NCBI RefSeq assembly: GCF_004010195.1
Contig: NC_057720.1
Span: forward strand, 30,255,579 to 30,319,578
Source: Chiloscyllium plagiosum
Lineage: Eukaryota
DNA length: 64,000 nt
Reading direction: 5' to 3'
Notes under the pieces: model-generated
Told to the model about the DNA's origin: nothing
The model's database searches: none
What the model saw: only the letters and a program-made list of their open reading frames with translations
Position numbers and translations under genes: made by a program
Part shown: positions 10,675-63,970 of the stretch, one piece after another
How positions within the stretch are numbered: the first letter of the stretch is position 1
Layout of the letters: each line of letters begins with the position of its first letter

Positions 10675-13600
10675 AGCACTTTGGGGCCAGCGACCATAAT
10701 TCAGAGTTTTAAAATAGTGATGGAAAAGGATAGACCAGGTCTAACAGTTAATCTTCTAAATTGGAAGAAGGCCAATTTTGACAGTATTAGGCAAGAACTT
10801 TCAAAAGCTGAATGGGGGCAGATGTTCCCAGATAAAGGGACGGCTGGAAAATGGGATGCCTTCAGAAATGAGATAACGAGAGTATCTTCATGTTTGGGTG
10901 AAAGGAAAGGTTGATAGGTATAGGGAATGCTGAATGTCTAAAGGAATTTGAGGGTTTGGTTAAGAAAAAGAAGGAAGTGTATGTCAGGCATAGACAGGAT
11001 AGATGGAGTGAATCCTTAGAGTAAAAAGGCAGTAGGAGTGTACTGAAGGGAGAAATTAGAGGGCAAAAAGGGGACATGAGACAGTTTTGGCAAATACCAT
11101 TAAGGAGAATCCAAAGGGATTTTGCAAATACATCAAGGACAAAAGGGTAACTAGGGAGAGAATAGGGCCCTTCAAAGATCACCAATGCAGCCTTTGTGTG
11201 GAGCCGCAGAAAATGGGGGAGCTACTAAACAAGTATTTTGCGTCAGTATTTACTGTGGAAAAGGACATGTAAGACATAGAATGTAGATGGTGACATCTTG
11301 ACAAATGTCCATATTACAGAGGAGGAAGTGCTCGGATGTCTTGAAACGCATAAAGCTGGATTAAATCCCCTAGACCTGATCAGGTGTACCTGAGAACTCT
11401 GGAAAGCTAGGGAAGTGATTGCTGGGCCTCTTACTGAGATATTTGTATCATTGATAGTCACAGATGAGATGCTGAAAGACTGGAGGTTGGCTTACGTAGT
11501 GCCACTGTTTAAGAAAGTTGGTAAGGACAAGCCAGAGAACTATAGACCAGTGAGCCTGATGTTGGTGGTGAGCAAGTTGTTGGATGGAATCCTGAGGGAC
11601 AGGATGTACGTGTATTTGGAAAGGCAAGGACTGATTTAGGGATCGTCAACATGGCTTTGTGTGTGGGAAATCATGTCTCTCAAACTTGACTGAGTTTTTT
11701 GAAGAAGTGACAAAGAGGATTGATGAGGGCAGAGGGGTAGATGTGATCTATATGGACTTCAGTAAGGTGTTTGACAAGGTTTCCATGGAAGACTGGTGAG
11801 CAAGCTTAGATCTCATGGAATACAGGGAGAACTAGCCATTTGGATACAGAACTGGCTCAAAGATAGAAGACAGAGGGTGGTGGTGGAGTTGTTTTTCAGA
11901 CTGGAGGCCTGTGACCACTAGAGTGCCACAAGGATCGGTGCTGGGTCCACTACTTTTTGTCATTTACATAAATGATTTGGATATGAGCATAAGAGGTATA
12001 GTTAGTAAGTTTGCTGATGACACCAAAATTGGAGGTGTAGTGGACAGCACAGAAGGTTACGGCTGAAAATGTGTTGCTGGAAAAGCGCAGCAGGTCAGGC
12101 AGCATCCATGGAACAGGAGAATTGATGTTTCGGGCATAAGCCCTTCTTCAGGAATGAGGAAAGTATGTCCAGCAGGCTAAGATAAAAGGTAGGGAGGAGA
12201 GAGTTGGGGGAGGGGCGTTGGAAATGCGATAGGTGGAAGGAGGTCAAGGTGAGGGTGATAGGCTGGAGTGGGGTGGGGGCGGAGAGGTCAGGAAGAAGAT
12301 TGCAGGCTAGGAAAGTGGTGCTGAGTTCGAGGGATTTGACTGAGACAAGGTGGGGGGAGGAGAAATGAGGAAACTGGAGAAATCTAAGTTCATCCCTTGT
12401 GGTTGGAGGGTTCCTCGGCGGAAGATGAGGCGCTCTTCCTCCAACCGTCGTGTTGCTATGGTCTGGCGATGGAGGAGTCCAAGGACCTGCATGTCCTTGG
12501 TGGAGTGGGAGGGGGTGTTGAAGTGTTGAGCCACGGGGTGGTTGGGTTGGTTGGTCCGGGTGTCCCAGAGGTGTTCTCTGAAACGTTCCGCAAGTAGGCA
12601 GCTTGTCTCCCCAAGATAGAGGAGGCCACATCGGGTGCAGCAGATGCAATAAATGATGTGTGTGGAAGCGCAGGTGAATTTGTGGTGGATATGGAAGTAT
12701 CCCTTGGGGCCTTGGAGGGAAGTAAGGGGGGAGGTGTGGGCGCAAGTTTTGCATTTCTTGCGGTTGCAAGGGAAGGTGCCAGGAGTGTAGGTTGGGTTGG
12801 TTGGTGGGGGGGTGTGGACCTGACGAGGGAATCACGGAGGGAGTGGTCTTTTCGGAACGCTGATAGGGGAGGGGAGGGAAATATACCACCTCCAAACGGA
12901 CCCCACCACCAAGTCCCTCCTCCCTACCTTTTATCTTAGCCTGCTGGACACACTTTCCTCATTCCTGAAGATGTCCTTATGCCCGAAACATTGATTCTCC
13001 TGTTCCTTGGATGCTGCCTGACCTGCTGCGCTTTTCCAGCAACACATTTTCAGCTCTGATCTCCAGCATCTGCAGTCCTCACTTTCTCCTCAGCACAGAA
13101 GGTGACCTCAGGTTACAACGGGATCTTGATCAGATGGGCCAATGGGCTGAGAAGTGGCAGATGGAGTTTAATTTAGTTAAATGCAAGGTGCTGCGTTTTG
13201 GGAAAGCAAATCTTAGCAGGACTTATACCCTTAATGGTAAGGTCCTAGGGAGTGTTGCTGAACAAAGAGACCTTGGAGAGCAGGTTCACAGCTTGAAAGT
13301 AGAGTCGCAGGTAGATAGGATAGTGAAGAAGGCATTTGGTATGCTTTCCTTTATTGGTCAGAGTATTGAGTACAGGAATTGGAAGGTCATGTTGCGGCTG
13401 TACAGGACATTGGTTAGTCCACTGTTGGAATATTGCATGCAATTTTGGTTTCCTTCCTATCGGAAAGATGGTGTGAAACGGGTTCAGAAAAGATTGACAA
13501 GGGTTTGCCTGGGTCGGAAGATTTGATCTACAGGGAGAGGTTGAATAGGCTAGGGCTGTTTTCCCTGGAGTGATGGAGGCTGAGGGGTGACCTCATAGAG

Positions 13601-13950
13601 GTTTATAAAGTCATAAGGGGCATGGATGGGATAAACAGACAAAGTCTTTTCCTTGGGGTGGAGGAGTCCAGAACTAGAGGGCATAGGTTTAGGGTGAGAG
13701 CGGAAAGGTATAAAAAGGACCTAAGGGGCAAATGTTTCATGCAGAAGGTGATGCGTAAATGGAATGAGCTGCCAGAGGAAGTGGAGGAGGCTAGTACAAT
13801 TGCAACATTTAAAAGGCATCTAGATGGGTATATGAACAGGAAGGTTTGGGGGGGATATGGCAGGTGGGACTAATTGGCTTGGAATATCTGGTTGGCATGG
13901 ACGAGTTGGACCAAAGGGCCTGTTTCCATGCTGTACACCTCTATGACTGA
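10675..13950 (+). mobile_element. CR1 (HER1-like) LINE, 5'-truncated, interrupted by a PLE at 12061-13090
   Basis: [58 protein letters not shown] motifs; 3' tail ...CTGTACACCTCTATGACT. Confidence 0.93.
12061..13090 (-). mobile_element. Penelope-like element (family A), GIY-YIG C-terminal part plus inverted pseudo-LTRs, 16-bp TSD
   Basis: AQHFNTPSHSTKDMQVLGLLHRQTIATRRLEEERLIFRRGTLQPQGMN. 12062-12210 is inverted at ~12910-13054. TSD CAGCACAGAAGGT(T/G)AC at 12045-12060 and 13091-13106. Confidence 0.9.
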
Positions 13951-14704
13951 GTCACCTGTTGGAATGCGGAATGAGGGACTGTAGAAAACAATTCTAGAGT
14001 CCATCTGATGTATTCAAACTCGAAGAATAATTTTGTAGTTGATTCTGTTAGAGGTTGCCCTATTTCCTTTCCATATTTTACAAAAGTACATATTTGTATG
14101 TACTACATTCATATGAATTATACATACAAATGAGGACTATTTGGTTTCTCAAGCCTGTTTCGTCATGTGGTAAGATCGTGGCTGATTTGATTATGGCCTC
14201 TATCTTCCTATCCACTCCATTTAACTTTCTTGTCATGAATGATTTTATCTCCGATTTAAGTTTCCATTGCTGACTTCCCCAGACGTGTGTGAAAACTGCT
14301 GCGCTTGATTAAGACTCAAGTCTGATAAATATGACAGTGTTAACATCGATATTTATATTAATAATTAACCCTCACCCAGTTTAATATTGGCATCAGAAAA
14401 CCTGCAGTACTGCACAATATTTTTTAATAAGTTATTGCTTATGCAAAAGTATCTCATTGGTCATCCATAATTGCCATTTACAGCTTTGCAAAAAATAATT
14501 AGTGAGGTAAAGGATTTCATACTGAACTGCATAGACTTATGGTAAATACAGTGAGCAATAACCAATATTAATGGCCAAAGACTGATTTTATGATTTTTTA
14601 AAATTTGTTTCCTCTTTACAGTACAACCTATGGTTGACTTTGTATTGCCGTCCTCATCAATAATTTAATCAGAAGTTCTTAATCTCATTTTGTTTGTTCT
14701 ACAG

Positions 14705-14868
14705 GTCTGATCATGGGCAGTAACCTCACGAGACACACATTCGGCTTCATTCAGAGCAGACTTTTTCCATACTACTTTCACCTTGGATCTTTCTGTGCCT
14801 TCTTTAATTTAACCATCTTTGCAATGTATCATCCCAGTGAGTTGTTAACTGAAGAGGAGACATTTCAG
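14705..14868 (+). CDS. TMEM205: TMEM205-like protein, coding exon 2
   Basis: Acceptor ctacag, donor CAG|GTAACA. Translates LIMGSNLTRHTFGFIQSRLFPYYFHLGSFCAFFNL..., like the TMEM205 RHTFG..QS.LFP.YFH motif. Phase fits exon 1 (100+164 nt). Confidence 0.9.
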
Positions 14869-15045
14869 GTAACATTCAGTGTTTTTAATTGGACAATGAG
14901 AGCGTGTTGAAGTTAATAGTCATCATTCTGGGTGGGATGTAACCCTTTCATCGCGAATGTTTTTATTTTTTCCAGAAATGGTCTGGATTACGTACAATCT
15001 CTTGTTAACTTTGTCACAGGTTCTGCTGCTTTTGAGCAACAATGC

Positions 15046-16267: not shown

Positions 16268-18703
16268 AAGTGTTTTCAGTACAAATATTTTAAAGGCTCA
16301 GTGTTGAATGGTGAAAACTTCATTTACAAATAATGGAAGGCTGAAAAGAAAACTATTTTGTTGTATTGTCTGACGAACATAAATCCAGTATGATCGCTCC
16401 AATAATTATGCATTTTTAAAAGTGTTCATGCTATTATTTGCAATATTTTAGAACAAAAATCAGTGGGAAGTAGAAAATTTTAAATTAGAGGCAACGCTGT
16501 TGAAATTCATTAGCGAAGACAAGTCTAGGGTGATAAACCTGAAACAAAAACTGAAATAGCAGGAGAACCTCAGCAGGTCTGGCAGTATCTATAGAGAGAA
16601 AGCATCAACATTTTTGGGTCTAGTGACCCTTAAACATTGATTCTGCTTTCTCTCCAATCTTTAAGGGCCACTGGACCCAAAATATTGACTCTTTCTCTCC
16701 ATCGATGCTGCCAAACATGCTAAATTTCTCCAGCGATTTCTGGTTTCAATTCCGATTTCCAGCAGTACTTTTTTTTTAGGGTGGGAAATGTTTAATTCTA
16801 TTATAGTTTGACTTACCGTAGTTTACCCTGTGTTATAATGCATATGTGTAAATAAGCTGTCATACTTTTCCACACCCACAAATTGATGGGATTGAATAAA
16901 TTTTAGGAGCTCTGCAATGGGATTTTTGAGTACAGCCAAGGGGAATTTGCCAGTATATATATTAATCTTGTGAATTAATTTTTATATGCTCTTTGTCAAT
17001 GAGAATCCTGCTATTAGATGGACTTGGTTTGTTAGCCTGAAATTGATGTAAGTGAAATTAGAACAGGTTATATATAACCTTTCCAGGAATTTAGAAAACT
17101 AGAAGAGATTTGTGATCCATATGTCTAGTCCCAAAATTCAAAACCGTGCCCCACACTAGCCCAACTCTTAATTCTTTTATCCAACAAATTTTAATGTAGA
17201 TCATACCAATTTGATGACAGTACATAACTCTTTAGGGCAGTCGTGTGTATGTATAATTTTGTATAAGATGTAGATTGAATGTATTGTATCAAAAACACTA
17301 ATGATTTTCCAATGTTGATAAAGAATATTTTGTCACCCTTTCCATTATTGCACTTCTCTAGTTTGTTTTTCATGTACTTTTGATGGCTCATGGTTTTTAT
17401 ATTAATTTTGTTCTTTCTGAAGGTATCACTGGCAAGGCCAGAATTAGTTGCCCATTCTTCATTGTCCTTGCATTGAGTGGCTTGCTCTGCCATTTCAGGG
17501 AATGTAATGCCTGCATTTCTCACCAGAGGGCAACTAAAAATCCTACACAGTACTGTAGGTCTGAAGTCACATGTAGGTCAGACAAAATAAGAATAGCTAA
17601 TTTCCTTTGAGTTAACAGTGCTGTATTATTGTCAAATGTTCCTGGGACATACTCTAAATTTTACTATCAACTGTGTTGGAATTCAAATTTTTTTTTTAAA
17701 GTCTGGGTTAGAGAACTAGCCAAATGGTGACATATAACAGCTGTCGATCACTGTAAAAACCCATCTGGTTCATGTTGCCCTTTTTAGGGAAGGATATCAA
17801 CCAGTTACCTGATGTGAAGTTAGTTGAACTTTGGTGGGGAAACCTCTACTATTTCTGTCACAATCAATTATGTCTAATCCCATGGAAAAAGATGGATTGA
17901 TTAGGAATTGGATTTCTAAAGGGGAAGTCATGTTTAACTAATCTGCTGGAATGTTTAGAAGACGTTACAGCAAGGCTGAATGAGTAATGCTGTTGATATG
18001 TTGTACGTGGATGACCAGGTGTTTACAACTGTGTGACACTATTAATGTGAATATAAAATTGGTTGAGTGATAGGAAATGGGGTAACAGTAAATGGATAAT
18101 TTCTGAGCTGGCGGAAAATTTATCGTGGCTTTTCTCAGAATATGAGCATTTTGCACTTATATTCTACCCTTCAAGCTGTCACATTTTGACTTTGGTGGCA
18201 AAACTATTTTTCAATCTCCCTTCTTACAACCTCACAACAGCAGCCCCTGAGTCCCCTACACTCTATGCTCTTTGCAATCTTGCTGCCATTGCTGTCAAGT
18301 TCCACACAGGTCCACCACCATTCTGTCTGTTTCTGTGACCTCTTTGTTCTCACTGCAATTGGCTTAATAAACTGGAGTGAAAACAATTGTTTGGAATCTT
18401 CAGCTTGAGAATAAAATGTAGAAGGCAATCCTAAGCAGCACCCAGGGAGTATGTATTGTCTGGAGAGCACTCATTCAATGATAATGATGAGATGTGATCA
18501 GATCATTTGTTCTCACATTTGTGTATGGTTTTCAAATATGGTATTATTGTCCATGTTTTTCTAAAACTATTTACTGTTGATCACACACCCACATTCATTG
18601 AGATAACACAATTTACTAGAATAAGTTTTGAACAGTCATATAGGATTAGAAATGATAACTACTTTATCCACAATTGCTGCCAAATCTCCAGCTCTGTATT
18701 ATC

Positions 18704-24374: not shown

Positions 24375-24564
24375 CTGAAAAGAGAACAGAGCCAAAATTA
24401 ATCTCTAGAAGGCAAAAATCTTTTTTCCCTGCTTGGCAGAAAACAAAACTCACATCCATAATTCAATATTATAAAGATCATATCTTTTTTATTTTGCTTT
24501 AATCTTGATTGTGGATTGAACTGGGAAGAGGAGGAGAAAGTGATATTCCTGATGAAGGGCTTAT

Positions 24565-26402: not shown

Positions 26403-26619
26403 TTATGCCCGAAATGTCAATTCACCTGCTCCTCTGATGCTGCCTGATCTGCTGTACTTTTCCAGCACCACACTTTAGACTCTGAACTGGGAAAAGGACG
26501 GTTTTTAAAAGAAAGACCAAGGAAGGAATTGTTGTATTTTTAATTATCAAGTTACTGAAACTCATTGTAAGTTGTGCTTACATTCTTGCTTTGCAAGCAG
26601 CGGGGGAAGGAGTAAAAGT

Positions 26620-31684: not shown

Positions 31685-32560
31685 ACAAAATACTGCAGAT
31701 GCTGCAATCTGTACTGAAAACAAAAAATGTTGGAAATCACAGCAGGTCAGACAGCAACCATGGAGAGAGTGCATGCTAATGTTTCGTGTCCAGCTGACTC
31801 TTCATCAGAGCTGATGTGAAGTGTGGAAGTGGCAGCATTTATGCAATAGTGGAGATAGAGTGCGAATGCTGGGGGGAAGAAATGGTGTTCATAGAGCAGG
31901 TTATGTAATCGGAACGTGAGAATGACAGAACAGTGGGTTCAACCCACTTCCATTCCTTCCCTTCCTTATAGCTTTATTTGTTACATTCTCTGTCACCATG
32001 CCCTCTCTTCCCTTCCCCGCACCCCAGTGGGACTGTCTGTTCTTTCCAGTCTGGCAGTTAGACTCAGCATTGTTCTGCCATTCTCACATTCTGCTCATTT
32101 CGGCAGCCTTTCAGATCTGCACTATCGGCACTCTTTCTCTCCTCCACCTCCATTGCATAAACGCTGACTCCTCCACACTTCACATCAGCTCTGATGAAGA
32201 GTCATCTGTACGTGAATTAGATTAGATTTTTTTTTTAGATTAGATTAGATTACAGTGTGGAAACAGGCCCTTCGGCCCAACAAGTCCACACCGACCCGCC
32301 GAAGCGAAACCCACCCATACCCCTACATTTACCCCTTACCTAACACTACGGGCAATTTAGTATGGCCAATTCACCTGACCCTGCACATCTTTGGACTGTG
32401 GGAGGAAACCGGAGCACCCGGAGGAAACCCACGCAGACACGGGGAGAACGTGCAAACTCCACACAGTCAGTCGCCTGAGGCGGGAATTGAACCCGGGTCT
32501 CTGGCGCTGTGAGGCAGCAGTGCTAACCACTGTGCCACCGTGCGTGAACATTAGTGATCT
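31685..32560. mobile_element. Older fold-back PLE relic with hammerhead-like motifs in both arms
   Basis: ~31790-31870 is inverted at ~32120-32210; CTGATGAAGAGTC motif on both strands; ACTGCAGATGCTG terminus. Confidence 0.7.
32217..32542 (-). mobile_element. HE1-type SINE, young copy
   Basis: tRNA-like head with boxes A and B; (TCTAA)n-type tail; CGTGAA duplicated at 32211-32216 and 32543-32548. Confidence 0.9.
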
Positions 32561-37762: not shown

Positions 37763-38050
37763 GCCGTCCACTCCCAGACAGCTCGCTCACTGCCCACAGC
37801 TGATACACTCGGAGATTTGTTACATTCAGCAACACATGTTTCCGGCTGCACCACTGCAAATCGTCCCCCAATCCCAAAAAACACTTCCGCCTTACCATTT
37901 TACTAACATTGGAGACGTAAAGCTCTTCGTCGAAGTGAAATCTGCGCGGCACTGTGTTTTGCATAATAACCATTTAAAAGAGGCGGAAGATCTGAATCGA
38001 TGCTGTGCTCGGTTTTTATGCAGTGAGCCAACGGGTAGAATGTACTGAGG
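37760..38050 (-). promoter_or_regulatory. TTC4 promoter / 5'UTR
   Basis: CpG-containing region directly upstream of the TTC4 ATG, with ETS-type motifs (CACTTCCGCC at ~37882, GGCGGAAG at ~37982, TTCCGG at ~37840). Confidence 0.55.
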
Positions 38051-39202
38051 TCTCCAAAATACCACAGTATTGATAAAAGTAAAATAAATCAATTGCTTGT
38101 TATTACAGTAAAATTGGAGGTGATCACTTGAAGTGAGCAGCCTTTCAAAATTAAAAAAAGACAATTAAAAACCATGGGAAGGTCAGGCTCCATGATGATG
38201 GACATTTTGGGTGACCAAAGGCAGGAGTCTGGAGGAGGGGCAGTTGAAAATAGAAAGTCATGTTGCCACATTTTCAGGAATATAACCTGCCAGAGTGGCA
38301 ACCGTCTTCGACAGATACTTAAAGGGAATCATCAATAATTGAACTATCAGAGCCATAGAGGTAGTGACAACTCCATGGGAGAGGTCAAGGGGCCGGCGCC
38401 AGGAGGGATACAGATCCAGATCCACTACATTTAGTGTGCTGTGATGGCTATTTAAAGGAAGGATGAAATTTCACACAGATTTCCCCTCCACGTATCCATT
38501 TTAATTATTTTTAATCAACCTGTTCTGTCATGTCATGATACACCTTCGGCACAAGTGGGACTTGAACTTGGATTTTCTGGCTCAGAGGCGAGCACACGAA
38601 CATTGTGCTTCAAGAGCCCTTCAACTTCGCTATGTGTACTGATGGCACACGTTCTGCATCCATAACAAAAGGCCCATCTACCCATTAGTCCTGTCATTGC
38701 TGACCTCTCTAGGTTTCTAGTTTTCTAACACCTCCAAATTAAACTTTTTAAACATGTGTAAATTTTGTGATAGGCCTTACTCCTATCTCTACAAAATGTC
38801 AGGAGACAAATGTCCTCCATGGATAGGGCAAAGAAGCAGGTCCTGCAATCACACCAAATGGATCAAACCTCCTGCAATTGACAACAATCTGGTCCACACC
38901 AGCTGTCCAGCCAACTGAATCAATTTGATATATTGTGGCAACATACATGTAGCCCAGAACTATGGATAATTTTAGAGGCTCCAATTTCCATGATATAGCT
39001 GACCAGGAATCTCTCCCATTCTTACCACCTGCCATTTGTTGGAAGAATTTGCAAGTTGTCATTCAATTGTTAGGGCACCATTCTTGACCATCAAGTCCTG
39101 GAGACAGATTTGAAATTAGAGCTTTTGGTTCAGAGGGAGGGATACTACCCACCAATAGATAGGACTTTCCTGAGGCAGATTAGTAGATATAAATATTTTC
39201 AG

Positions 39203-39815
39203 AGCTGAAAATGTGTTGCTGGAACAGCGCAGCAGGTAAGTCAGCATCCAGGGAACAGGAGAATTGACGTTTCGGGCATAAGCCCTTCTTCAGGAATGAG
39301 GAAAGTGTGTCCAGCAGGCTAAGATAAAAGGTAGGGAGGAGGGACTTGGGGGAGGGGCGTTGGAAATGCGATAGGTGGAAAGAGGTCAAGGTGAGGGTGG
39401 GGTGGGGCGGAGAGGTCAGGAAGAAGATTGCAGGTTAGNNNNNNNNNNNNNNNNNNNNNNNNNNNNNNNNNNNNNNNNNNNNNNNNNNNNNNNNNNNNNN
39501 NNNNNNNNNNNNNNNNNNNNNNNNNNNNNNNNNNNNNNNNNNNNNNNNNNNNNNNNNNNNNNNNNNNNNNNNNNNNNNNNNNNNNNNNNNNNNNNNNNNN
39601 NNNNNNNNNNNNNNNNNNNNNNNNNNNNNNNNNNNNNNNNNNNNNNNNNNNNNNNNNNNNNNNNNNNNGGGGGAGGTGTGGGCGCAAGTCTTGCACCTCC
39701 TGCAGTTGCAGGGGAAGGTGCCGGGAGTGGAGGTTGGGTTGGTGGGGGGTGTGGATCTGACGAGGGAGTCACGGAGGGAGTGGTCTTTACGGAACGCTGA
39801 TAGGGGAGGGGAGGG
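39203..39815 (-). mobile_element. Penelope-like element (family A) spanning an N gap; hammerhead motif at 39262-39297 (-)
   Basis: Near-identical to 12062-12880; flanked by AAATATTTTCAG (39191-39202 / 39816-39827). Confidence 0.85.
39439..39668. other. Assembly gap (N run)
   Basis: 230 Ns. Confidence 0.99.
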
Positions 39816-42499
39816 AAATATTTTCAGGTCACTTCTCTATGACTGAAGCACATTTCATGTTTCCAATCCAATGAAAATTTTCAATTCTTTCAAAGGCTTT
39901 CATAAACAAATCTGCCTATTTACTATACAGATGCAGACTGAATTGGTGTGTTTCTTCCAATGAAATCTGTACTCTTTGGAGTTGTAGAATGACACTATCA
40001 TCAGCTTCCTCTATTTTGTTGTTTCTCCTCTGTCTGTTCCACCCTCTTCATTTTTAAAGCGTACTCCTTTTATTTTTCCATTTCTTACTATTTTTGGCCA
40101 GGTCTCCATTCCCATTCTTGCACTCTCCATATTGTGGTCAGGTCCTGCAAGCTATGGTACAATATGGAAGGGGTGATGGACCACCAGAAAATACAGCACT
40201 TTCTCCCTTTGTCTTTTTAGGGCCAACAAGCACATCAGCTGCTTTTATCAGTGGATTTTCATAATGCAAGGATGTGTTGTGGGCCACTGAAATCATTAAA
40301 TGGACCAGTTTCAAACTGCTGATCAGAGATCTTGGCTAACCTCTCAGCCTGTATTTTTAATCACAGTTGCAGTTCCAAGAAAGTGCACTACAGAATTATA
40401 GAAAATGGATTCCTGTAGTGAGTCTCAATCCTCAGCAGAGTTATTATTGCCTCACCTCAGAACATGGGCAAAAATCAGCCAGATGCATCTATTGCTTATC
40501 ATTCAGCCATGTTGACAAAAGCTAAACGGTTATGAGGAGAAAGTGGGAGAATGGGGTTGAGAAACTTATCAGCCACAATTGAATGGCGGAGCAGACACGA
40601 TAAGCTGAATGGCCTAATTTCAGCTCCTATCTCTTATGTTCTAACCTCCAGCTTGCCCAGGCAAGAAATAGTAGCCCCAATATTTCTTCATCCTTCACCC
40701 ACTCCAATTTAGTTTCGATGACGCACAAAATGATCCTGTTGTCCTGACCTCAGCATGCCTTATCTGCATTGCAACAGGGTCTACAATTGAAAAGTACTTC
40801 ACGAGTGAAACAGATTAGGATTTCCTGACATACTGAATGTCTTCCTTCTTTCTTCTCTTTCCTCATAAGTCTACAACCTGGGGGTCTACCTAATGTCTCT
40901 CTGGGCTTCTGGATGTTTTCAAAAAGATCAAATCAGAACCACACTGGACCTAAAGATCCTGTGGGGAGGTTGGAGAGAAAGGCAACATTTAAATTTTCAG
41001 GGATCCCTCATTTTGAACTTTGTCATCCTGAGATGCTGTGATCCAAAGAACAGGGAGACGCAATCAGGAAATTCTGATGAGAGTTCGAAGAATGTGACAT
41101 TGGGCTTGGAATGCTACAGCTCATCACTATTTTCATGCATGTTTTCGACTAAAGGCTTCCCCTCCATTAGTGAAGTCTTGGAAAGACTAGAGTAACAAGA
41201 AGAGGTCAGAGATCTGGTACCATAGGTCTCTGCCTACAGATCCCATGACTTCCTACTTTCTAAATAAACATCACATGAAATTTAGCCCAAAATGTTGCAA
41301 CCATAGAATGAGCCAGGATATAGTGGAAAAAATAAACTCTAAGTTAAATGAATGGGTTTGTAAACTAAAACTGAATTTTGCTTCAAATAATCACTGACTA
41401 CACAATATATGATACACAAGACAATAACAGCATAAAAGGAAATTGGATGAAGATTATAGTTCAATTATGGTTATTTCCTGATTAGATTAGTCAAGTAGCT
41501 AAAAGTTCATCCCAGGCAGCTGGTGTAAAATGGACAAAATTGGTTCATGTGTTAAGCAGAGCCTGAATTTCAGTTCCTGTGGAGTCAATGGGAGTAAATT
41601 CCAGGTACTCCACATAAAAAGCAGCTGGTTTGATACCACAACTTTTGTGCCACTGCCTGAATTGAGCTTATAAAACAATATCTTTGAAATGTAGTGGCAG
41701 CTGACAGCATCTGATGATCATTGGTGGAACAATAGATGACTCTTTTAGTTTTCTAGGGCTTATCATATTACATTTATAGTTAGATGACCTGTACATGTTG
41801 TATATCAATTAGAACATCTTACAAGACTGATCCAAGAATGACATGGAAAAACTAGACAAGCAACCTCCTTAAAACAAAATCCTCATTTTACTCAGACAAT
41901 CTTCTCCGAATTCAGACATTACATGATCTGTATACTCTTCCAATCAGTAGAACATAAGATTAATGAACACATCAGCACAGGATCGAAATAAATGATCCTC
42001 CACCAGAACAGGAACAATCTAGAATAAAAGCATGATTGTAGAAATGTGTTCATTTCAGCAACAAAGCAGAAGTAACCCAACAAACCTGCACATTTGATAC
42101 ACAATAATTCTCATATAAGACTTACAAAAGTTACCAATTACAGTACTGCGTACAAGGTATTCTTGGTATAAATTTTTAGTTTTTATTTAGCTTTGCTTTG
42201 TTACTGATCCTATTGTCTGCTTAAGTTTCAATTGCTACACTGCATTCTCCAAAACAGTACATGTCTCTCTCTCTAATGTGATTCATATAAAAATGAGTTG
42301 ATTGTTACTTCCTGTGATATAGCTTAACAATCTTAACAGTCCCCCACCATAAGGGAAACAACATAATTACATCAGATATATCATTGTGAACTATTTCCTT
42401 TGCCGTACACTTTCAAAAAGACTTGATTTCAAGGGTCTGCAAACCATAGTAAAGCACTTTCACCGTTGTAGATGGCCCTATCCAAAATAATGGCATGTA

Positions 42500-43912
42500 C
42501 TAAACAATCTTCACATTTCTCAGTAAGTCCAAAACACCTTCTTGTGTGAGAAATACTGTCTTTCTATTGTTTTGACAGCTGACTTCAAAAACTGGTGGAT
42601 TTTCCAAAACTCGCTTCCCTGCAATTACAACATATGGGTAACCCAGACGACTGGCATCTTTCAATCTCTTGCCTATAGTCAGGTGGCTTCGGTCATCCAA
42701 GAGCACCTCTCCATGAAGCTGGGGGACAGCATCTATTAAAGTATCATACAACGTCTCAGACAGTCCTAGGCTCAGTTCTTCTTTACTGCCTTTCTTAGGT
42801 GGAATGATGCACACTTGGTAAGGGGCCAGGAGGCTTGGCCAGCGAATCTCATCTTCCGTTGACAAAACCTCTATGGCAGCGGCTAGTATTCGTGTGACTC
42901 CAAGGCCAAAACAACCCATTTCGGTTACAACAGGCTTATTCTCAGTGTTGGAATATGAGGCACCTAAAATATATGAATACTTTGTCCCAAGGTTAAAAGT
43001 GTGTCCCACCTCAATGCCTTTGCTTTCTTTCAGCTTTCCATGACACTGTGGGCAGTTTGTTTCAGTGTCCGTCATTGCTTCAACATTGGCTGCAAAATGG
43101 CAGTCAGAACACATTAAAAGGCGATCCTCCCCAATATCAGCTGGCAGCTGGAACTCGTGAGACATTTTCCCACCAATGTTGCCGGTGTCCGCCCGCACCT
43201 TTACAAACTGCAATCCCAGCTGGCCAAAGATACAACTGTAAGCTTGGGAAACAAGATTATAGGTCTCCATGGCAGCTCCTTCCGAGACATCAAACGTGTA
43301 CATATCCTTCATGTAGAACTCTCGTCCACGGAGCAAACCAAAACGTGGCTTTGGCTCATCTCGGAACTTTCTTGTCACTTGGTAAAGCATCAAAGGTAGC
43401 TGTCTATATGAGAGATTACCCTGCATGGCAATTAGCTCGGTCACTGCCTCCTCGTGTGTTGGACTTAAACAGTATTCCATGTCATGCCTATCCTTCAGTC
43501 TGAATAGTTCCTTCCCCAGAAGGTCCCAACGTTCACTGGTCTTCCACAGACTTGCTGAGGTGAGGCTGGGCATGTTCACCTTCTGACCCCCAATGGATTG
43601 CATTTCTTTATCAATCACACGGACAAGTTTCTCCATGGCTCGAACTGTATACGGCAGATAGTGAAAGCAGCCTGTATTGGCTGGCTGAATAAGACCTGCC
43701 TGAAGCATCAGTCTCTGGCTCTTGCAGGTAATGTCACTGGAGCGGCCAACCCCAGTAGTTCTATCCTCGCGGAGATTCATTGGCTGGAAGAGACGAGACA
43801 GTAATATACGCTTGGACCTACCATGGTGATAATAGGACCTGTGTAAATGTAAGATGTTACAGAACAGTCTGTTGAACAATTGTCTTGAATTTGAATAGAT
43901 TGCCACCTCCAT
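42500..43912 (-). CDS. PARS2: Mitochondrial prolyl-tRNA synthetase, single coding exon (470 aa)
   Basis: Class II aaRS ProRS motifs (LSPTHEEAVT, YQVTRKFRDEPKPRFGLLRGREFYMKDMYTFD, GIEVGHTFNLGTKYS, MGCFGLGVTR, anticodon-binding DDR..TIGKRL). Basic N-terminal presequence-like stretch. Splice acceptor just upstream (exon starts 43936); AATAAA on the minus strand at 42182-42187. Confidence 0.97.
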   Translation of the reverse strand: MEVAIYSNSRQLFNRLFCNILHLHRSYYHHGRSKRILLSRLFQPMNLREDRTTGVGRSSDITCKSQRLMLQAGLIQPANTGCFHYLPYTVRAMEKLVRVIDKEMQSIGGQKVNMPSLTSASLWKTSERWDLLGKELFRLKDRHDMEYCLSPTHEEAVTELIAMQGNLSYRQLPLMLYQVTRKFRDEPKPRFGLLRGREFYMKDMYTFDVSEGAAMETYNLVSQAYSCIFGQLGLQFVKVRADTGNIGGKMSHEFQLPADIGEDRLLMCSDCHFAANVEAMTDTETNCPQCHGKLKESKGIEVGHTFNLGTKYSYILGASYSNTENKPVVTEMGCFGLGVTRILAAAIEVLSTEDEIRWPSLLAPYQVCIIPPKKGSKEELSLGLSETLYDTLIDAVPQLHGEVLLDDRSHLTIGKRLKDASRLGYPYVVIAGKRVLENPPVFEVSCQNNRKTVFLTQEGVLDLLRNVKIV

Positions 43913-44419
43913 TACGCATCCAAGAAATAATTAGTTCTAGAAAGGAAAACAAAGAGGATAAGTTCACATCTTTCTCAAAAAAGAACATTTTCAAAACCCA
44001 TACCATATTTAAGAAAGGAAAACACTGTGGACTGAATGCATAACAGCAAGTGAACTAGGTACATCATTGTCATATTATTTCACTTGCAATGTTTATTAAG
44101 ATGAGAGATGCGAAACATATTCACCTGTGCTTTCCAAGATCACAATTAAGCATCCAATAACAATCAAGCATTCTTCAGTGTGTCATCAAAGCAGGAAAAG
44201 ATCAACAACTGGCCTACTTCACTGTACATCCAGCATATTCTGGCTATTATAACTTAGCATGGACTCACACACAGTTAACTATGCATAGTTACATCCACCA
44301 GGATTGATTGTCACATATTAAGCTGGATTGCGTGTTGGGTTACCATTTTCATCAACTACAATCCTGGTTTTTAAAAGTGGCTGCAAAGCGAGCAGCAAAA
44401 GTGATTATCTTCCAAACTT

Positions 44420-45860
44420 CTTTGGTTCTGAAACAATACCAGCAGACTGGGAAATAGCAAATAGAATAGCTTTACTTAAGAAAGAACAGAAACAAAGTGC
44501 AGGAACGTATAGAATAAAGCCAATGTTGCAAGTAGTTTACTTGCTGGAATCCAAGATTATGGTTGTAGGAGGGGACTTGAAAATCATAACGGAATCTGGC
44601 AGAGTCAACATGGTTCTGTGAAAAATAAATCATGTTTAACTACTCTGTTAGAGTTTTTTGAAGAAGTAATAAGCACAACAGATATAGATGACCCTGTAAA
44701 CATTGTGTTCTTAGATTTCCAAGAGACTTTTGTGAAAGTGTCACATCAAACGTGGTGACACAAAGCAAATGGTTATGATGTTAGCAAGGATAAAGGAATG
44801 GTTGTCTGACAGGAAACAAAATAGGACAAATTAATCTTTTTCAGACTGGCAGACCAGGGTTAGTGGAGTGCCACAGGAAACATTGCTTGGCTCGCAACTA
44901 TTTATAATCTATATTAATGTCTTGGATGATGGGACGACGGTAGTTAAATTTGCTGACAAAATAGCTAGGATAGTTATTTGTTAAAGGAGCTACAAGGGTT
45001 AAGAGAGTGGGCAAAACTTTAGAGAGAGTACAATATGGAGAAATGCAAACTTCCAAATTGATAGGAAGAATGGAAAAGTAGCATTCAAGTTAAATGGAGA
45101 CAAATTACAGAATTCAGTGGTATTGAAGGAATCACAAAAAGTTTCATAAAGTAATTCAGGAAACAAATGAAGTGTTGGTGCTTATTCTAATAGGAAAAGG
45201 ATAAAGGAATGGTTGTCTGACAGGAAACAAAATAGGACAAATTAATCTTTTTCAGACTGGCAGACCAGGGTTAGTGGAGTGCCACAGGAATCATTGCTTG
45301 GCTCGCAACTATTTATAATCTATATTAATGTCTTGGATGATGGGACGACGGTAGTTAAATTTGCTGACAAAATAGCTAGGATAGTTATTTGTTAAAGGAG
45401 CTACAAGGGTTAAGAGAGTGGGCAAAACTTTAGAGAGAGTACAATATGGAGAAATGCAAACTTCCAAACTGATAGGAAGAATGGAAAAGTAGCATTCAAG
45501 TTAAATGGAGACAAATTACAGTGGTATTGAAGGAATCACAAAAAGTTTCATAAAGTAATTCAGGAAACAAATGAAGTGTTGGTGCTTATTCTAATAGGAA
45601 TGGAATATGGAAGTAGGTTTTTTTTTTACAGCTGTACAGAGTCTCAATGAGACTACATTTGGGGAAGTAGATAAAAACAAGGACTGCAGATGCTGGAAAC
45701 CAGAGTCTAGATTAGAGTGGTGCTGGAAAAGCACAGCAGGTCAGACAGCATCTGAGGAGTAGGACTCGGATGCTGCCTAACCTGCTGTGCTTTTCCAGCA
45801 CCACTCTAATCTACATCTGGAGTAGTGTCTAGTTTGTGTCCTTATTTGTAAGGCAATGCA
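44420..45860 (+). mobile_element. Old CR1 LINE remnant in the PARS2 intron, containing a tandem duplication and a short PLE fold-back (45669-45810)
   Basis: Decayed DWEIAN, KSCLTTLLEFFEEV, SGVPQ and KFAD motifs. Confidence 0.75.
44786..45600 (+). repeat. Near-perfect tandem duplication, ~411-bp unit
   Basis: 44786-45196 and 45197-45600 differ by two substitutions and a 7-bp deletion. Confidence 0.92.
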
Positions 45861-45889
45861 AGTGTTTTCTTTAGAGGTTTATACAGCAG

Positions 45890-46322: not shown

Positions 46323-46329
46323 CTCGGTC

Positions 46330-46560: not shown

Positions 46561-47514
46561 CATCCGTTTCAAAACAGCTATTTAGCTTTTCTGCAGGTAC
46601 CTTTCTCCCTCACTGGTGCAGTTCTTAAAACAAAAAAGAAATGCTGAAACTACTCAGCATCTGTGGAGAGAGGAAGAGAATTAATGTTTCACGTCTGCGA
46701 CCGTTCATCAGAACTGGACTTGACACGGGGAGGAGCGCGGAACAAGTATCATTAAAATAAACCAGAGTTGTATATCCATCAAAATAAAGCATCCAAACAC
46801 TTTGAGGAGGTGGCATTCAATAGATGGCCAAGAATCTGAAAGGTTACAGGCAAAGGACATTATGAACAGTCATGGTGCTACCATAAATATTACTTTCCAT
46901 GCTTTATCATTCTCCGAAAGATTTGCAGTGAGGATTTCAATTGGTAATGTTCTGAATGCACATCCACCCACCTCATCTACTGCATTTTGTTATGGACCAC
47001 ACCAGACCCTGTCAAAACATTTCAAGAGAGTAACACACACGCTAACTTTTCTAGTTGTTTTAATCAGGTGTAGAGTGGATATTCCAGGAGTGATGCAGCT
47101 GGCCCAACCACTCAGTTTTAAACAAAACAGAATTTATTTACAGACTACTGAATGAAACACAAACAAAAGAGAACACAATATAGAACAACTTAACCTATCT
47201 GAAAACCAATTCAACTGTCGCAAAGTAATGATGCTGTTTCAAATACCTGCAATATCCCAATAAACACACCCTTGGCAAAAAAAGGTAAAATCAAACACAG
47301 GTTCTTGCAGGAGAAATGTCAGAGACAGAATGTGCCAGAAAACCTCTGCTGAATCCAGGAACCTTCTCCCCAAGCAGCTTTCTTTGACCAGCAGCTTCAA
47401 GCAGAAGGCTTGCTAAAGCCAAACCAAACGAAAACCAGAAAAAAAAACCCTGAACCGAGAGAACTGGCCACTCCCCTTTTATTGTACAAGTGTTCTTTAT
47501 TAAAAAATTAATGT

Positions 47515-48066
47515 GGGGGAGGGGAAATGAGGAAGCTGTTGAAATCCACATTTGTCCTGTGTGGTTGCAGGGTCCCAAAGTGGAATATGAGGTGTTCTTC
47601 CTCCAGGCGTTGGGTGTTAATGGTTGGTAGAGGAGCCCAAGGCCACAGACATCTACTACAAACCCACCAACTCCCAAAGCTATGTAGACTACACCTCCTC
47701 CCACCCTACCTTCTGTAAAAACACTATTCGTTATTCCCAACGATCCACATCCATGAACACCAACTAGCCATGAAACGACACGACCAGCTATCCTTAGTAG
47801 CCACACACGCAGATGACAAGCAACATGAATTCGACTGGGACAACACTACTATTATAGGACAAGCCAAACAGAGAACAGCCAGGGAATTCCTAGAGGCATG
47901 GCACTCATCCACAGATTCAATCAATAAGCACATCGACCTGGACCCAATATACCGACCACTGCAGCGGACAGCTGGAACTGACAATCGGAAGCAGCAGATT
48001 CAAACCACTACAAATGCCGGAGGAAAGATCACAGAAGCGCTTCACAGGAGGCTCCCAAGCACTGAG
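47515..48066. mobile_element. Composite PLE fragments: family A inverted junction (47515-47728) plus a family C GIY-YIG fragment (47729-48066)
   Basis: HEHQLAMKRHDQLSLVATHADDKQHEFDWDNTTIIGQAKQRTAREFLEAWHS...SINKHIDLDPIYRPL is a Penelope/Poseidon-type GIY-YIG C-terminus. Confidence 0.8.
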
Positions 48067-54547: not shown

Positions 54548-55045
54548 TCAGGTGTGATCAGGATTCATTGTTTCCAAAAGTAATTTTACTATTCGCAGCT
54601 TCCCAGCTATGATCATAGCTCTGGAGAGTTTTAAAATCTTTGGCATATGGTTTCGGCAAATTAAGCGCAGTTCCTGTCGGACTCTCTCCATTTGATACTT
54701 TGCCTCAGCTTTTTCTACCCAGATTTCCACCTCACGGATGACCATTTCCTCACTGGATTTCTCCTGGATGAACAGTGACAAAAGCGATTCAATGAGGCAG
54801 CGGAATGTCTCAGAGTACTGGGATCCTACATCATCAAGTTCAATTGCTTGCTTGAAGCACTCAACTGCATTGTGCTCCTCCCCTTTGACCTGTAAACACT
54901 TCCCTCTCAGCAACTGGATCTCGGGCAGCGTGTCTCCCATGTCAAGCTCCATGGCTTTGGCAAAGAAAACTAAAGCATTGTTTAGTGCATTCTCATCCAC
55001 CAACTGGAGTTCTTGCACAGCATCAACACCCATGTAGTAACAAAC
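54548..55045 (-). CDS. TTC22: TTC22 last coding exon
   Basis: VCYYMGVDAVQELQLVDENALNNALVFFAKA...LPEIQLLRGKCL...LLLETMNPDHT*; acceptor taacag. PARS2-TTC22 adjacency is also seen in human 1p32. Confidence 0.92.
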   Translation of the reverse strand, partial: VCYYMGVDAVQELQLVDENALNNALVFFAKAMELDMGDTLPEIQLLRGKCLQVKGEEHNAVECFKQAIELDDVGSQYSETFRCLIESLLSLFIQEKSSEEMVIREVEIWVEKAEAKYQMERVRQELRLICRNHMPKILKLSRAMIIAGKLRIVKLLLETMNPDHT

Positions 55046-55444
55046 CTGTTAGCAATACAGAAATAGGTTATTAATCCAAAAGGAGCAATGAAATTGAACT
55101 TGGGTGGCAGTGCATTTCAAGACTATAAACAAATTTACATATCTAGAAAAGTTCATAATCCACAAGAGGTCCAACAGTTTGAGAGTCATCAGTTTAGTAT
55201 ACAACAAATATTTGTGGGAACTTTTTAAAAAATGCATTCAAGGGATGAGGGCATTAGTGGCTCGGCCAGCATTTATTGCTCATCCCAGAGTGCAGTTGAG
55301 TCAACCACATTGTTGGAGGTCTGGAGTCACGTATAGGTCTGACACATAGATAAGGTTTGCAGTTTCCTTCCCTTAAAGACATTAGTGAACCAGATAGGTT
55401 TTTTTTCCCCCAACAATTCACAATATATTCACGGTCATCATTTA

Positions 55445-55770
55445 GGTGGCATGGTGGCTCAGTGGTTAGCACTGCTGCCTCTCAACATCAGGGACCTGGG
55501 TTCGATTCCCATCACGGGCAATTGTCTGTGTGGAGCTTGCACGTTCTCCTTGTGTCCACTGGGTTTCGTCTGGGTGTTCCGTTTCCTCCCACGGTCCAAA
55601 GATGTGCAGGTTAGGTGAATTGGCTATGCTAAATTGCTCACAGTGTTAGGTACATTCGTCAAGGGTAAATATAGGGTAGGGGAATGGGTGTGGGTGGGTT
55701 ACTCTTTGGAGGGTCAGTGTAGACTTGTTGGGCCGAAGAGCTTGTTTCCATACTGTAGGGAATCTAGTCT
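55445..55770 (+). mobile_element. HE1-type SINE
   Basis: GGTGGCTCAGTGGTTAGCACTG...GGTTCGATTCC head; tail shared with CR1. Confidence 0.85.
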
Positions 55771-55875
55771 AGTTATTAGACTCCTAATTCTAGATTTGTA
55801 TTGACTTCCACCATCTGCCATGGCATGATTTGAACCCAGGTCCCCAGAACATTACCTGGGTCTTTGTATTAACAG

Positions 55876-57463
55876 TGAAGAGTGTGCTGCTGGGAAAGTA
55901 CAGCAGGTCAGGCAGCATCCGATGAGCAGGACAATCAACGTTTCAGGCATAAGCCCTTCATCAGGAATGAGGCTTGTAGTCCAGGGCTAAGAGATAAATT
56001 GGGGGGGGGGTTGGGATGGAAGGTAGCTGAGAAAGTGATAGGTGGGTGAAGGTGAGGGAGAGGTGATAGGTCAGAGGGGGAGTGATGATGGACAGGTCAG
56101 GTGGGTGGTGCTGAGTTGGCGGCTTGGAACTGGGATAATTTTGGATAGGGAAAATGAGGAAACTGTTGAAATCCACATTTATCCCGTGTGGTTGCAGGGT
56201 CCCAAAGCAAAATATAAGGTGTTCCTCCTTCAGGGGTTGGGTGGTAATGGTTGGTGGAGGAGCCCAAGGCCACAGGCATCTATTACAAGCTCACTGACTC
56301 CCACAGCTACCTAGACTACACTTCCTCCCACCCTACCTCCTGCAAAAATGCCATGCCTTATTCCCAATTCCTCTACTTCTGCAGCATCTGTTCCCAGGAT
56401 GACCAATTCCACCTCAGAGAGTCCCAGATGGCATCCTTCCATGATCGCAACTTCTCTTCCCACGTGGTTGACAATGCCCTCCAGCGCATCTCCTCCACTT
56501 CATGCACCACTGCCCTTGAACCCCACCCTTCCCAATGCAACAAGGACAGAACCACCCCCCGGTCCTCAACTTCCACCCCACCAACCTCCGCATACATTGC
56601 ATCATCCTCCGCCACTTCCACCACCAAAAATATATTTCCCTCCCCACCCCTATCAGCGTTCCAGAGAGACCATTCCCTCCATGACTCCCTCGTCAGGTCC
56701 ACATCCCCCACCAGCCCACACCTCACTCCTGGCACCTCTCCCTGCCACTGCAGGAAGTGCCAAACCTGCACCCCCACCACACCTCTCACATCCATCCAAG
56801 GCCCCAAGGGATCCTTCCACATCCAAGAGAAATTTACCTGTACCTCTACCATTGTCATCTACTGCATCTGTTGCACCCAGTGTAGTCTCCCCTACATCAG
56901 GGAGACAAGGACGCCTTCTTGCGGATCATTTCAGGGAACATCTCTGAGACACCTGCATCTACCAACCCCACCGCCCCGTGGCTGAAAACTTCAACTCCCC
57001 CTCCCACTTCGTCAAGGACATGAGGGTCCTGGGCCTCCTCCACCGCCAAACCATTACCACCTGACGCCTCGAGGAGGAGCGCCTCATATTCCACCTTGGG
57101 ACCTTGCAACCAGACAGGATTAATGTGGATTTCAACAGCTTTCTAATTTCTCCATCCCCCACATTATCCCAGTCCAAAACCTCCAACTCGGAACCGCCAT
57201 CCGGACCTGTCCATTACTCCCCCCTGACCTATCGCCACCTCCCTCACCTTCACCCTCCTATCGCTTTCTCAACTACCTTCCCCCCCCAACCCCACCCCGC
57301 CTTCCATTTATCTCTCAGTCCCAGCCCACAAGCTTCATTCCTGATGAAGGGCTTATGACTGAAGTGCAATTCTCCTGCACCTCGGATGCTGCCTAACCTG
57401 CTGTGTTTTCCCATCACCACACTCTCGACTCTGATCTCCAGCATCTGCAGTCCTCACTTTCTC
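55876..57463 (+). mobile_element. Penelope-like element (family A) with inverted 5' part, RT-thumb/GIY-YIG remnants and hammerhead-bearing pseudo-LTRs
   Basis: TGIYYKLTDSHSYLDYTSSHPTSCKNAMPYSQF; PCHCRKCQTC; FTCTSTIVIYCICCTQC. 55880-56270 is inverted at ~57025-57425. Diverged 16-bp TSD (55860-55875 / 57464-57479). Confidence 0.9.
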
Positions 57464-58260
57464 GTCTCTGGAATAACAGCCCAGCCTAGGCCATTGCCTC
57501 CTGATCAACCATTTTATGATTGTGTAACTAGGTGATGCTTTTTTTTTTAGGAGAAAGACTGTTAAAGGCTACACTACTTACTGTTAATCTGATTGCAACT
57601 GGGTAAGAAGCTAAAAATGTGGCTGCTACAAGTCACCTGACTGTGCAACTGCAAGTTCTACAAGGATCTCACAGAAACGTGCACAAACATGTAAAAACTC
57701 ATGGTGACTCATTGCAACAATGTAAATTGGGCATTGACCACACCTAAGACTTAGAACCACAATTTCTCCCTTCAACTCTATTTTGATTTAGTACCCTCCC
57801 TCCCTTCCTACTCTGTCCTTTTTTTTGTTGTTATTAATTGTTATTTGTTTAGTGGGTAAATTGAGAGATTAAGTGGTGGGTTAATTTAAAAAGTTCCTTC
57901 CTCTGGGTGAAGAGGCCCAGGCTCAAGTCCCGAGGTGTGTAACAATATCTCTGAACACATCGATTAGAAAACATCTTTTACAAAAAAAAAAGTAGGAGAA
58001 AAGAGTTGTCCCTGAAATGTGTCACTGCATAGGTCACTTGATAACAGTGGCCATTCTACCTTGTCAACTATGAATGACTCAAAAAGGTAAGCTGTCTAGA
58101 CAGAGAGTTTCTATCGAGACATACAGAGAGAGATAAAAAAGGGATTCTCTCCAAGAGTCAACTGTCCTTTGTAAAAAAATACTAATTATCCAATTACAGA
58201 AGCCACCACAGCTACTGGATATGACTTCAAGTCTTAATCTCTTAAACAAAGAACTCAAAC

Positions 58261-58809
58261 GTTGTGGTTCTGTTCGCCGAGCTGGAAGATTTTGTTGCAA
58301 ACATTTCGTCCCCTGGCTAGGCGACTGCCCTATGATAGTAGTGTTGTCTCAGTCGAATTCATGTTGCTTGTTGTCTGCGTGTGTGGCTACTAAGGATAGC
58401 TGGTCGTGTCGTTTCGTGGCTAGTTGATGTTCATGTATGCGGATTGTTAGCTGTCTTCCTGTTTGTCCTATATAGTGTTTAGTGCAGTCCTTGCATTTTG
58501 TATTTTGTACACTACATTAGTTTTGCTCATGTTGGGTATCGGGTCCTTCGTTCTGGTGAGTTGTTGTCTGAGCGTGGCTGTTGGTTTGTGTGCCGTTATG
58601 AGTCCTAGGGGTCGCAGTAGTCTGGCGGTCAGTTCTGAGATGCTCCTATAAACACCGGAGGAAACATCAAAGAAGTGCTTCGCAGGAGGCTCCCAAGCAC
58701 TGATGATGTCGCCTAGCCAGGGGACGAAACGTTTGCAACAAAAACTTCCAGCTCGGCGAACAGAACCACAACAACGAGCACCCGAGCTACAAATCTTCGC
58801 ACAAACTTT
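58261..58809. mobile_element. Penelope/Poseidon-type element fragment (family C) with inverted ends; 10-bp TSD GAACTCAAAC
   Basis: Minus-strand SELTARLLRPLGLITAHKPTATLRQQLTRTKDPIPNMSKTNVVYKI. 58261-58326 is inverted at ~58707-58774. TSD at 58251-58260 and 58810-58819. Confidence 0.85.
58697..58736 (+). ncRNA. Minimal type I hammerhead ribozyme motif
   Basis: GCA-CUGAUGA-U-GUCGCCU(AGCC)AGGGGAC-GAAA-CG-UU^-UGC: intact core, stem I GCA/UGC, stem II with one mismatch, palindromic ACGU stem III. Confidence 0.72.

Positions 58810-63230: not shown

Positions 63231-63970
<740 letters not shown>

Follow-up and report, generated by a model that had tools for sequence, protein, structure and literature searches.

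Hammerhead ribozymes of Penelope-like elements in a Chiloscyllium plagiosum locus and their probable copying from uncut capped RNA

Penelope-like elements (PLEs) carrying hammerhead ribozymes recur across a 64,000-nucleotide (nt) stretch of the Chiloscyllium plagiosum genome (contig NC_057720.1, positions 30,255,579 to 30,319,578), referred to here as the window. The motifs belong to a known class, the minimal type I hammerheads of PLE pseudo-long terminal repeats (pLTRs), and all their features match the minimal hammerhead ribozymes (min-HHRs) in the accessible text of PMC4209133. They occur in at least three families, A, B and C, mostly as decayed and likely inert insertions, and in A and B these were likely copied from the capped start of an uncut RNA. 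We consider this account as a whole probable.

Host genes and hammerhead copies in the window

RNA reads were placed only on 34700-44100, and intron assignments elsewhere rest on protein matches. TTC4 is a minus-strand gene with a start codon at 37762 and introns at 35443-36396 and 36514-37662 given by RNA joints, reaching at least to 24257 as judged by TPR and Cns1/TTC4 Wheel matches. TTC22, also on the minus strand, has exons at 63240-63416, 60091-60249 and 54551-55048, the last being 100% identical to a TTC22-named protein of Chiloscyllium plagiosum and 97% to that of the whale shark. A plus-strand DUF4149 gene, which we take to be TMEM205-like, has exons near 9237-9407 (a weak match) and at 14683-14907. 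At 42215-43936 on the minus strand lies a single-exon prolyl-tRNA synthetase-like open reading frame (ORF), presumably PARS2. This ORF and TTC4 are both on the minus strand in the window; human PARS2 and TTC4 are convergent.

Positions within the motif are given relative to core C3 (the first base of CUGANGA, set to 0), and sites are also named by the position of C3 and the strand. The predicted cut falls before +28 in family A, +29 in B and +34 in C. A scan with a type I hammerhead descriptor had been proposed in a preliminary description made from the letters of the window alone. The descriptor used tolerates one additional nucleotide after CUGANGA and does not demand stems I and III, and it found a perfect core and stem II at six sites (12151-, 36780+, 39293-, 46711-, 55964- and 58700+), against a mean of 0.76 and a maximum of 5 in 100 dinucleotide shuffles. 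Four of the sites additionally have a paired stem III and UH, for which the shuffles give a mean of 0.04 and a maximum of 1. Five of the six depend on the extra nucleotide between 9 and 10.1, and a stricter descriptor without it returned two window sites, missing true hammerheads. An Rfam scan of the window yielded no matching hammerhead model; its nine matches at E≤5 were dismissed as look-alikes of microRNA (miRNA) and small RNA hairpins. Each of the twelve entries of the preliminary description does hold a motif or its remnant, but only three retain the core and all stems (36780+, 58700+ and 55964-).

An insertion of family A at 12062-13090, in an intron of the DUF4149 gene, consists of head-to-head inverted arms flanking a GIY-YIG fragment and is bounded by a 13-bp target-site duplication. 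The hammerhead on its minus strand (12120-12156, antisense to the host gene) has core and stem II intact and has lost stem I and the stem III palindrome (CG to CA). That on the plus strand (12961-12998, sense) has broken stems II and III and is predicted to be dead. Within TTC4, two fragments at 24545 and 26403, earlier suspected to be halves of one split family A copy, are indeed separated by a break in loop II. The 5' half (24545-24564, plus strand, antisense, intronic) starts exactly where stem I does, and the 3' half (26403-26488, plus strand) follows ~1.8 kb away, with ORF fragments resembling long interspersed nuclear elements (LINEs) between them. Another family A 3' half (34607-34682, plus strand, antisense, TTC4 intron) was rightly called partial, but its start coincides with an assembly gap, so the 5' half may be hidden rather than absent. 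An older remnant of a further family, D (31778-31812, minus strand), lies sense in a TTC4 intron with an irregular stem II and a broken stem III, and a D-type inverted arm (32187-32216, plus strand, antisense) ends before GAAA.

TTC4 intron 36514-37662 contains a family B fold-back stub (36663-36871), an 88-bp palindrome with a long tail on the left arm, a short one on the right and an 11-12-bp duplication. It includes an intact family B hammerhead (36777-36811, plus strand, antisense to TTC4) with stem III AGCU and a 3-bp stem I, followed by AUUAAA at 36820-36825. In the mirror arm (36748-36779, minus strand, sense to TTC4) a G replaces C3 and stem I is absent, and it is predicted to be dead. 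A family A hammerhead at 39262-39297 (minus strand) lies after an ORF fragment in the stretch that separates the PARS2-like gene from the TTC4 start, with core and stems II and III intact and the closing pair of stem I lost. An older hammerhead (46679-46715, minus strand) has a broken stem III (CG to CA). The preliminary description had placed copies in introns of the TMEM205-like gene, TTC4 and TTC22, which holds for several of them; 39262 is upstream of the TTC4 start codon and 46679 is between TTC22 and the PARS2-like ORF, and neither could be assigned to an intron.

TTC22 intron 55049-60090 carries the sole near-intact sense copy, a family A hammerhead (55933-55968, minus strand) with an intact core, one G-U pair in stem II and a 2-bp stem I. 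Its inverted partner arm (57335-57463, plus strand, antisense) has lost GAAA, in agreement with its earlier listing, at 57336, as a decayed family A copy. A family C insertion (58261-58811) with a 10-bp duplication combines a short-tailed minus arm (58261-58325, without CUGAUGA) and a long-tailed plus arm. The intact family C hammerhead (58697-58736, plus strand, antisense to TTC22) has stem III ACGU, a 3-bp stem I and an extra U. Copies beyond those listed earlier are the mirror arm 36779-, the arm 58325-58261 and a decayed family B copy (5290-5194, minus strand). The last is clustered, at 5194-5445, with a family A fold-back (5307-5445) whose arms stop within or behind the ribozyme. At 45680-45804 lies a tails-only family A fold-back with its centre behind the ribozyme, and at 47490-48065 family A ORF fragments are fused to a family C fragment that terminates four bases into CUGA.

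Families, fold and copy number

The view that at least three PLE families carry hammerheads is borne out by coding evidence of each family's own. The GIY-YIG fragment of family A was matched at E=0.002, below the curated cut-off. Family B has its own cysteine (zinc) linker and GIY-YIG-like nuclease ~1 kb upstream of the motif; the nuclease, seen in locus L355, is 32% identical to that of family A and is common to four other loci. Family C has an RVT_1 match (E=1.4e-8) and a linker-less nuclease region, and its reading frame terminates inside stem II. The reverse transcriptase (RT) and nuclease pieces of A, B and C were taken from different copies and not from one full-length element. A and B, which have the cysteine linker in front of the nuclease, are putatively Neptune-type, and C, which lacks it, is putatively Poseidon-type; the assignment follows PMC8557442 and uses this feature only.

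Two older families, D and E, are also present. Family D has a tail similar to that of A and forms inverted arms, and no ORF linking it to a coding region was found. Family E (loci L111, L126, L086, L104 and L132) has a 5-7-bp stem II and an extra U, with a stem II and tail resembling those of C. A subfamily of A (loci L092, L106 and L147) has loop CUGU, GAAU after the cut and a perfect 4-bp stem I; the common A form has a U-U mismatch.

Different sequences keeping one fold had been taken to argue for a structured RNA, and stems I and III do covary across the five families. Of 15 family-level pairs, 14 are Watson-Crick with differing letters, a result equalled by 2 of 20,000 shuffles. Stem I pairs 1 and 2 are each kept in 48 of 51 copies and the third in 25, stem III pair 15.2-16.2 is kept in 42, and the closing pair of stem II (10.1-11.1) is G-C in 39 and, through CpG decay, G-U in 12. 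The extra nucleotide between 9 and 10.1 is A in families A, B and D and U in C and E, in a tally limited to matches having the extra base. The palindromic stem III expected of these pLTR hammerheads is present as A15.1-N-N-U16.1 followed by H17, reading ACGU in A, C and D and AGCU in B, and these 4-mers are self-complementary, as required for a dimer. When monomers are folded, the hammerhead is not the lowest-energy form. Among 197 family A copies picked by their tails, N7 is changed in 63 and the loop II positions in 17, 34 and 50. In stem II and GAAA the positions outside CpG are changed in only 0-9, the other losses being CpG decay. We infer that the fold was kept by selection in source elements and that copies then decayed neutrally.

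Exact-pattern searches of the genome for the core returned 34,462 copies of family A, 9,190 of B and 4,039 of C (47,691 in total; reversed controls 0), and tail anchors returned 72,066, 34,787 and 7,831, respectively. Strict hammerhead copies number 33 in 746 kb (eight spectrin-repeat gene intervals), or 44 per Mb, which extrapolates to ~157,000 in the 3.56-Gb genome. Cervera and De la Pena (2014, PMC4209133) described min-HHRs in metazoan PLE pLTRs with counts of 4,000 in coelacanth and 9,000 in Xenopus, both exceeded here. No record is claimed; shark families and counts of this size were not met in the literature as accessible, though Lunse et al. 2016 or supplements may contain them.

Insertion ends, tails and family B RNA

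Arms for mapping 5' ends were chosen by tail anchor and not by ribozyme, with 4 A, 1 B and 2 C arms that end at gaps excluded; a few of the longest A and B 5' ends are self-reference matches. In family A (n=139), 57 ends fall at -10 to -1, 43 of them at -5 to -3, compared to 2 at -40 to -11 and none at the cut (+27 to +29). In family B (n=109), 44 fall at -10 to -1, 8 at -40 to -11 and 1 at the cut. Starts were predicted with the initiator (Inr) consensus. In family A an Inr-type sequence sets +1 at -4, which is where stem I begins. In B the predicted start is at -8, and a TATAA at -38 lies 30 nt ahead of it.

A non-element base at the start edge was found in 7,516 A and 3,293 B copies. Among the first 100 matches listed of each family, counted by eye, the base before the predicted start was G in 59 for A and 67 for B, with a fraction of 0.27 expected. 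In 60 inspected loci G occurred in 15 of 27 unique-flank junctions, in all 15 inverted junctions with a spacer and in all 12 junctions where the arm could supply it; six long B copies had T. Thus G is found in 30 of the 42 junctions without an inverted-arm explanation. The unique-flank excess differs from base composition at p=0.002, and the excess with spacer junctions added gives p=0.008.

A search for starts at the cut site gave 934 matches, of which 30 were inspected. Fourteen were point changes in longer copies, 12 lay in inverted junctions (one of them really a longer copy) and four were unique-flank starts. Cut-site starts thus make up ~1.4% of A copies (0.4% with unique flank), over per-base backgrounds of 0.37% and 0.04% that derive from few events. 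The cut was rejected as the main class of 5' end, as 31% of A ends lie at -5 to -3.

The 3' ends form two clusters ~35 nt apart in all three families, at ~+90 and +126 in A, ~+85 and +122 in B (with a lesser one at +111) and ~+73 and +112 in C. One long and one short tail are combined in 115 of 120 inverted pairs. The inverted pairs of the window are single insertions with 10-13-bp duplications, and the inverted 5' pLTR, tail and target-site duplication of endonuclease-bearing (EN+) PLEs are all present. The clusters and the long/short pairing agree with in vitro findings on an anole element, for which RT started at two internal sites and both strands were nicked (PMC11167929).

The RNA data come from one poly(A) single-cell run of one sample, and family B reads derive from copies anywhere in the genome. 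Family B RNA is stranded, with 640 against 17 first mates across the motif, and 457 reads carry upstream pLTR sequence. Poly(A) follows positions +57 (213 reads) and +60 (212 reads), with 73 more reads on the mirror arm, and the genome has no A-run there. These positions are 12-15 nt behind AUUAAA, and a GU-rich element lies further behind; no AUUAAA-type hexamer occurs in the first 130 nt of A and C. No pile of read ends was seen at the predicted cut in the poly(A) run over 34700-44100. Uncut, polyadenylated family B RNA therefore exists, and the reads cannot show that none is cut. With ~35,000 copies in the genome, the family B poly(A) site could terminate host transcripts early when inserted in sense. 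The arms of some inverted B insertions (L030/L031, L166/L167) differ by a 2-nt variant after the cut, which may reflect two RNA templates per insertion or a later change.

Copying from capped RNA, alternatives and known systems

The pile-up of 5' ends before stem I, the G excess and the uncut family B RNA suggest that the majority of copies probably arose by run-off copying of RNA that was capped and uncleaved. Element RNA would begin at the Inr at the foot of stem I (-4 in A, -8 in B). The enzyme would nick both DNA strands and the RT would prime at two internal sites ~85-125 nt downstream, one per nicked strand. Running off at the cap, it would leave promoterless stubs of ~90-130 nt or fold-back pairs. 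Selection would retain the fold in active source elements only, where the ribozyme may be kept for a step on tandem element RNA. As cleavage would need a dimer and probably an element protein, it would occur mainly on such tandem RNA and not on host pre-mRNA.

Several points weigh against this account. Family C has no 5' pile-up, with 1 of 40 ends at -10 to -1 and 4 of 40 at -40 to -11, and most of its copies extend far upstream; its peak is missing despite a TATAA at -53. The TATA-like box of family A is non-canonical (TTTATC at -35). The unique-flank G count of 15 of 27 is not significant when the comparison is with non-C ends nearby (8 of 23, or 8 of 34 with C included; p=0.17). There may be a small excess of cut-site starts, a minor class at most, and a few fetched regions were widened to include neighbouring core matches, which may slightly favour core-bearing arms. 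The starts at -4 and -8 are predictions read from insert ends and the Inr, not from RNA 5' ends. The poly(A) reads come from many loci in one sample, and libraries of this type would not retain a 3' cleavage product of 32 nt. Finally, the lack of strand bias in host genes described below would indicate no fitness cost and not the absence of cleavage, since a cut intron may still splice.

The same ends could have arisen without a capped start if the RT stalled past the folded ribozyme and the products were joined by microhomology. Many ends do lie within inverted junctions with 2-3 nt of microhomology and a spread of -5 to +9, the G excess among unique-flank junctions is weak when judged by the positional control, and the TATA box of family C goes with no peak. 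However, the peak is equally sharp among unique-flank ends (20 of 23 A ends in -10 to -1 lie at -5 to -3), it differs by family (-4 versus -8) and follows the Inr rather than stem I, and G is found in every inverted junction with a spacer, making stalling an unlikely explanation. Templates might instead be ribozyme-cut unit-length RNAs or ligated circles, as in retrozymes and as proposed in the accessible part of PMC4209133. Long copies with upstream sequence plus a tail would suit a circular or read-through template, and about 15 of the 30 inspected candidate matches do begin at the cut. Against this stand the rarity of cut-site starts compared to the ends at -5 to -3, the stop at the Inr and the added G, neither of which a circle explains, and the scarcity of tandem neighbours. 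Neighbour pairs within 2 kb in the fetched loci (n=138) were head-to-head in 120 cases, tandem in 12 and tail-to-tail in 6, and such a template is quite improbable as the main source. Tandem or retrozyme-like arrays were likewise considered and rejected on these 12 tandem pairs, and no arrays were seen.

It had also been proposed that sense intronic copies could cut host pre-mRNA when paired with a second copy, and extensive cleavage of this kind appears very unlikely. The stem III 4-mers are self-complementary, strict copies are dense enough (~44 per Mb) for some genes to contain several in sense (one interval has 6), and dimers of such motifs show weak in vitro cleavage in PMC4209133, as far as its accessible text goes. 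In the window, however, there is no intact sense pair. The intact B and C copies are antisense because TTC4 and TTC22 are on the minus strand. Among the five sense copies, 12961 and 31778 are broken, the mirror arm 36779 carries G at C3 and the arm at 58325 lacks CUGAUGA. The fifth, 55964, is the only sense A copy in its TTC22 intron, and its inverted arm 1.3 kb off gives a predicted duplex of -111 kcal/mol. Inverted partners give predicted duplexes of -111 to -282 kcal/mol, and the family B stub a single predicted hairpin of -162.6 kcal/mol. In the eight spectrin-repeat intervals, treated as single genes from same-strand domain matches, 16 strict copies are sense and 17 antisense (17 and 26 in a looser set, p=0.22), a sample whose size rules out only strong bias; for 12 of these 16 strict sense copies an inverted partner lies no more than 2 kb away. 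In vitro activity is also low or protein-dependent in the accessible accounts of PMC4209133 and PMC11167929. A host-exapted intronic ribozyme was rejected, as the window's intact copies of B and C are young and in antisense and there is no sense enrichment. The insertions are likely inert in host introns and without harm to host genes. The genome contains roughly 10^5 intact-looking hammerheads without apparent cost to host genes, an argument that a minimal hammerhead stays silent until it is paired and receives help.

A tentative extension, which we regard as possible and on balance doubtful, is that the pLTR works like a retroviral U3-R-U5 (unique 3', repeat, unique 5'), with stubs and hairpins being strong-stop products integrated without a jump and the hammerhead removing the cap or tail from element messenger RNA (mRNA). 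In family B, R would run from the cap (-8) through the hammerhead to the poly(A) site (+57/+60). The B RT starts (~+85 and +111 to +122) lie beyond that site, so on a polyadenylated RNA they would be present only in the 5' copy. The first product would be a strong-stop-like complementary DNA (cDNA) of ~100 nt ending at the cap, which could jump to the 3' end via the shared R and give longer copies, or integrate without the jump as stubs and hairpins, with one primer per nicked strand. The hammerhead would then be a switch on the mRNA cap or tail and not a cutter of the copied template. Read-through or circular templates would account equally well for the long copies, and the jump is offered as a hypothesis.

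The motif class, its link to PLEs, the inverted pLTRs and the tails are already published. The accessible text of PMC4209133 gives a stem I of 4-5 bp in Schistosoma, compared to 2-3 bp here, names no sharks and does not map insert 5' ends, as was done here. For PAc, a Poseidon element of Anolis carolinensis (Frangieh et al. 2024), PMC11167929 reports that, in vitro, RT starts internally, protein assists cleavage and the main template is unprocessed RNA. The families described here resemble PAc in having two internal RT starts ~35 nt apart that define the tail, a hammerhead upstream of both, uncut RNA as the main template and no RNA ends at the cut. That work concerns a single element in vitro and, in its accessible part, describes neither cap-ended stubs in a genome, nor a large-scale one-long-one-short rule, nor polyadenylation ahead of the RT starts. 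Like EN+ PLE insertions in the accessible parts of PMC3846280 and PMC8557442, they have a head-to-head inverted 5' copy, a 30-40-bp tail at one end only, a target-site duplication and a predicted TATA and Inr in the pLTR. The palindromes of PMC3846280 are ascribed in that text to self-priming on an antisense template, whereas in the present families the two arms both stop close to the predicted sense start.

Non-LTR retrozymes (bioRxiv 10.64898/2026.07.22.740005, as far as accessible, with one chondrichthyan sampled) are also PLE-derived, non-coding and equipped with type I hammerheads, but form tandem arrays where the copies here are solo or inverted stubs. An extra untemplated G at the 5' ends of full-length L1 and SVA insertions has been attributed to cap copying in the accessible part of PMC4859970. 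The extra G at the predicted RNA start is similar, although here it occurs in another retroelement class and on 90-130-nt stubs rather than full-length insertions. Drosophila Penelope has a TATA-less internal promoter according to the accessible text of PMC2377424, unlike family B with its TATAA. Literature searches uncovered no earlier description of cap-ended stubs or of strong-stop copying by PLEs. The insertion ends amount to a large fossil record of PLE copying. They suggest that the template was capped and uncut and that each insertion used two primers, with polyadenylation in family B taking place before the RT starts are reached.

Two further repeats lie in the window. At 16605-16688 a short inverted repeat inside another short repeat has a miRNA-like hairpin score that falls under the gathering score. 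At 44786-45496, two 300-nt copies that are 99% identical and 411 nt apart lie in LINE-like sequence, representing either a recent duplication or an assembly artefact.

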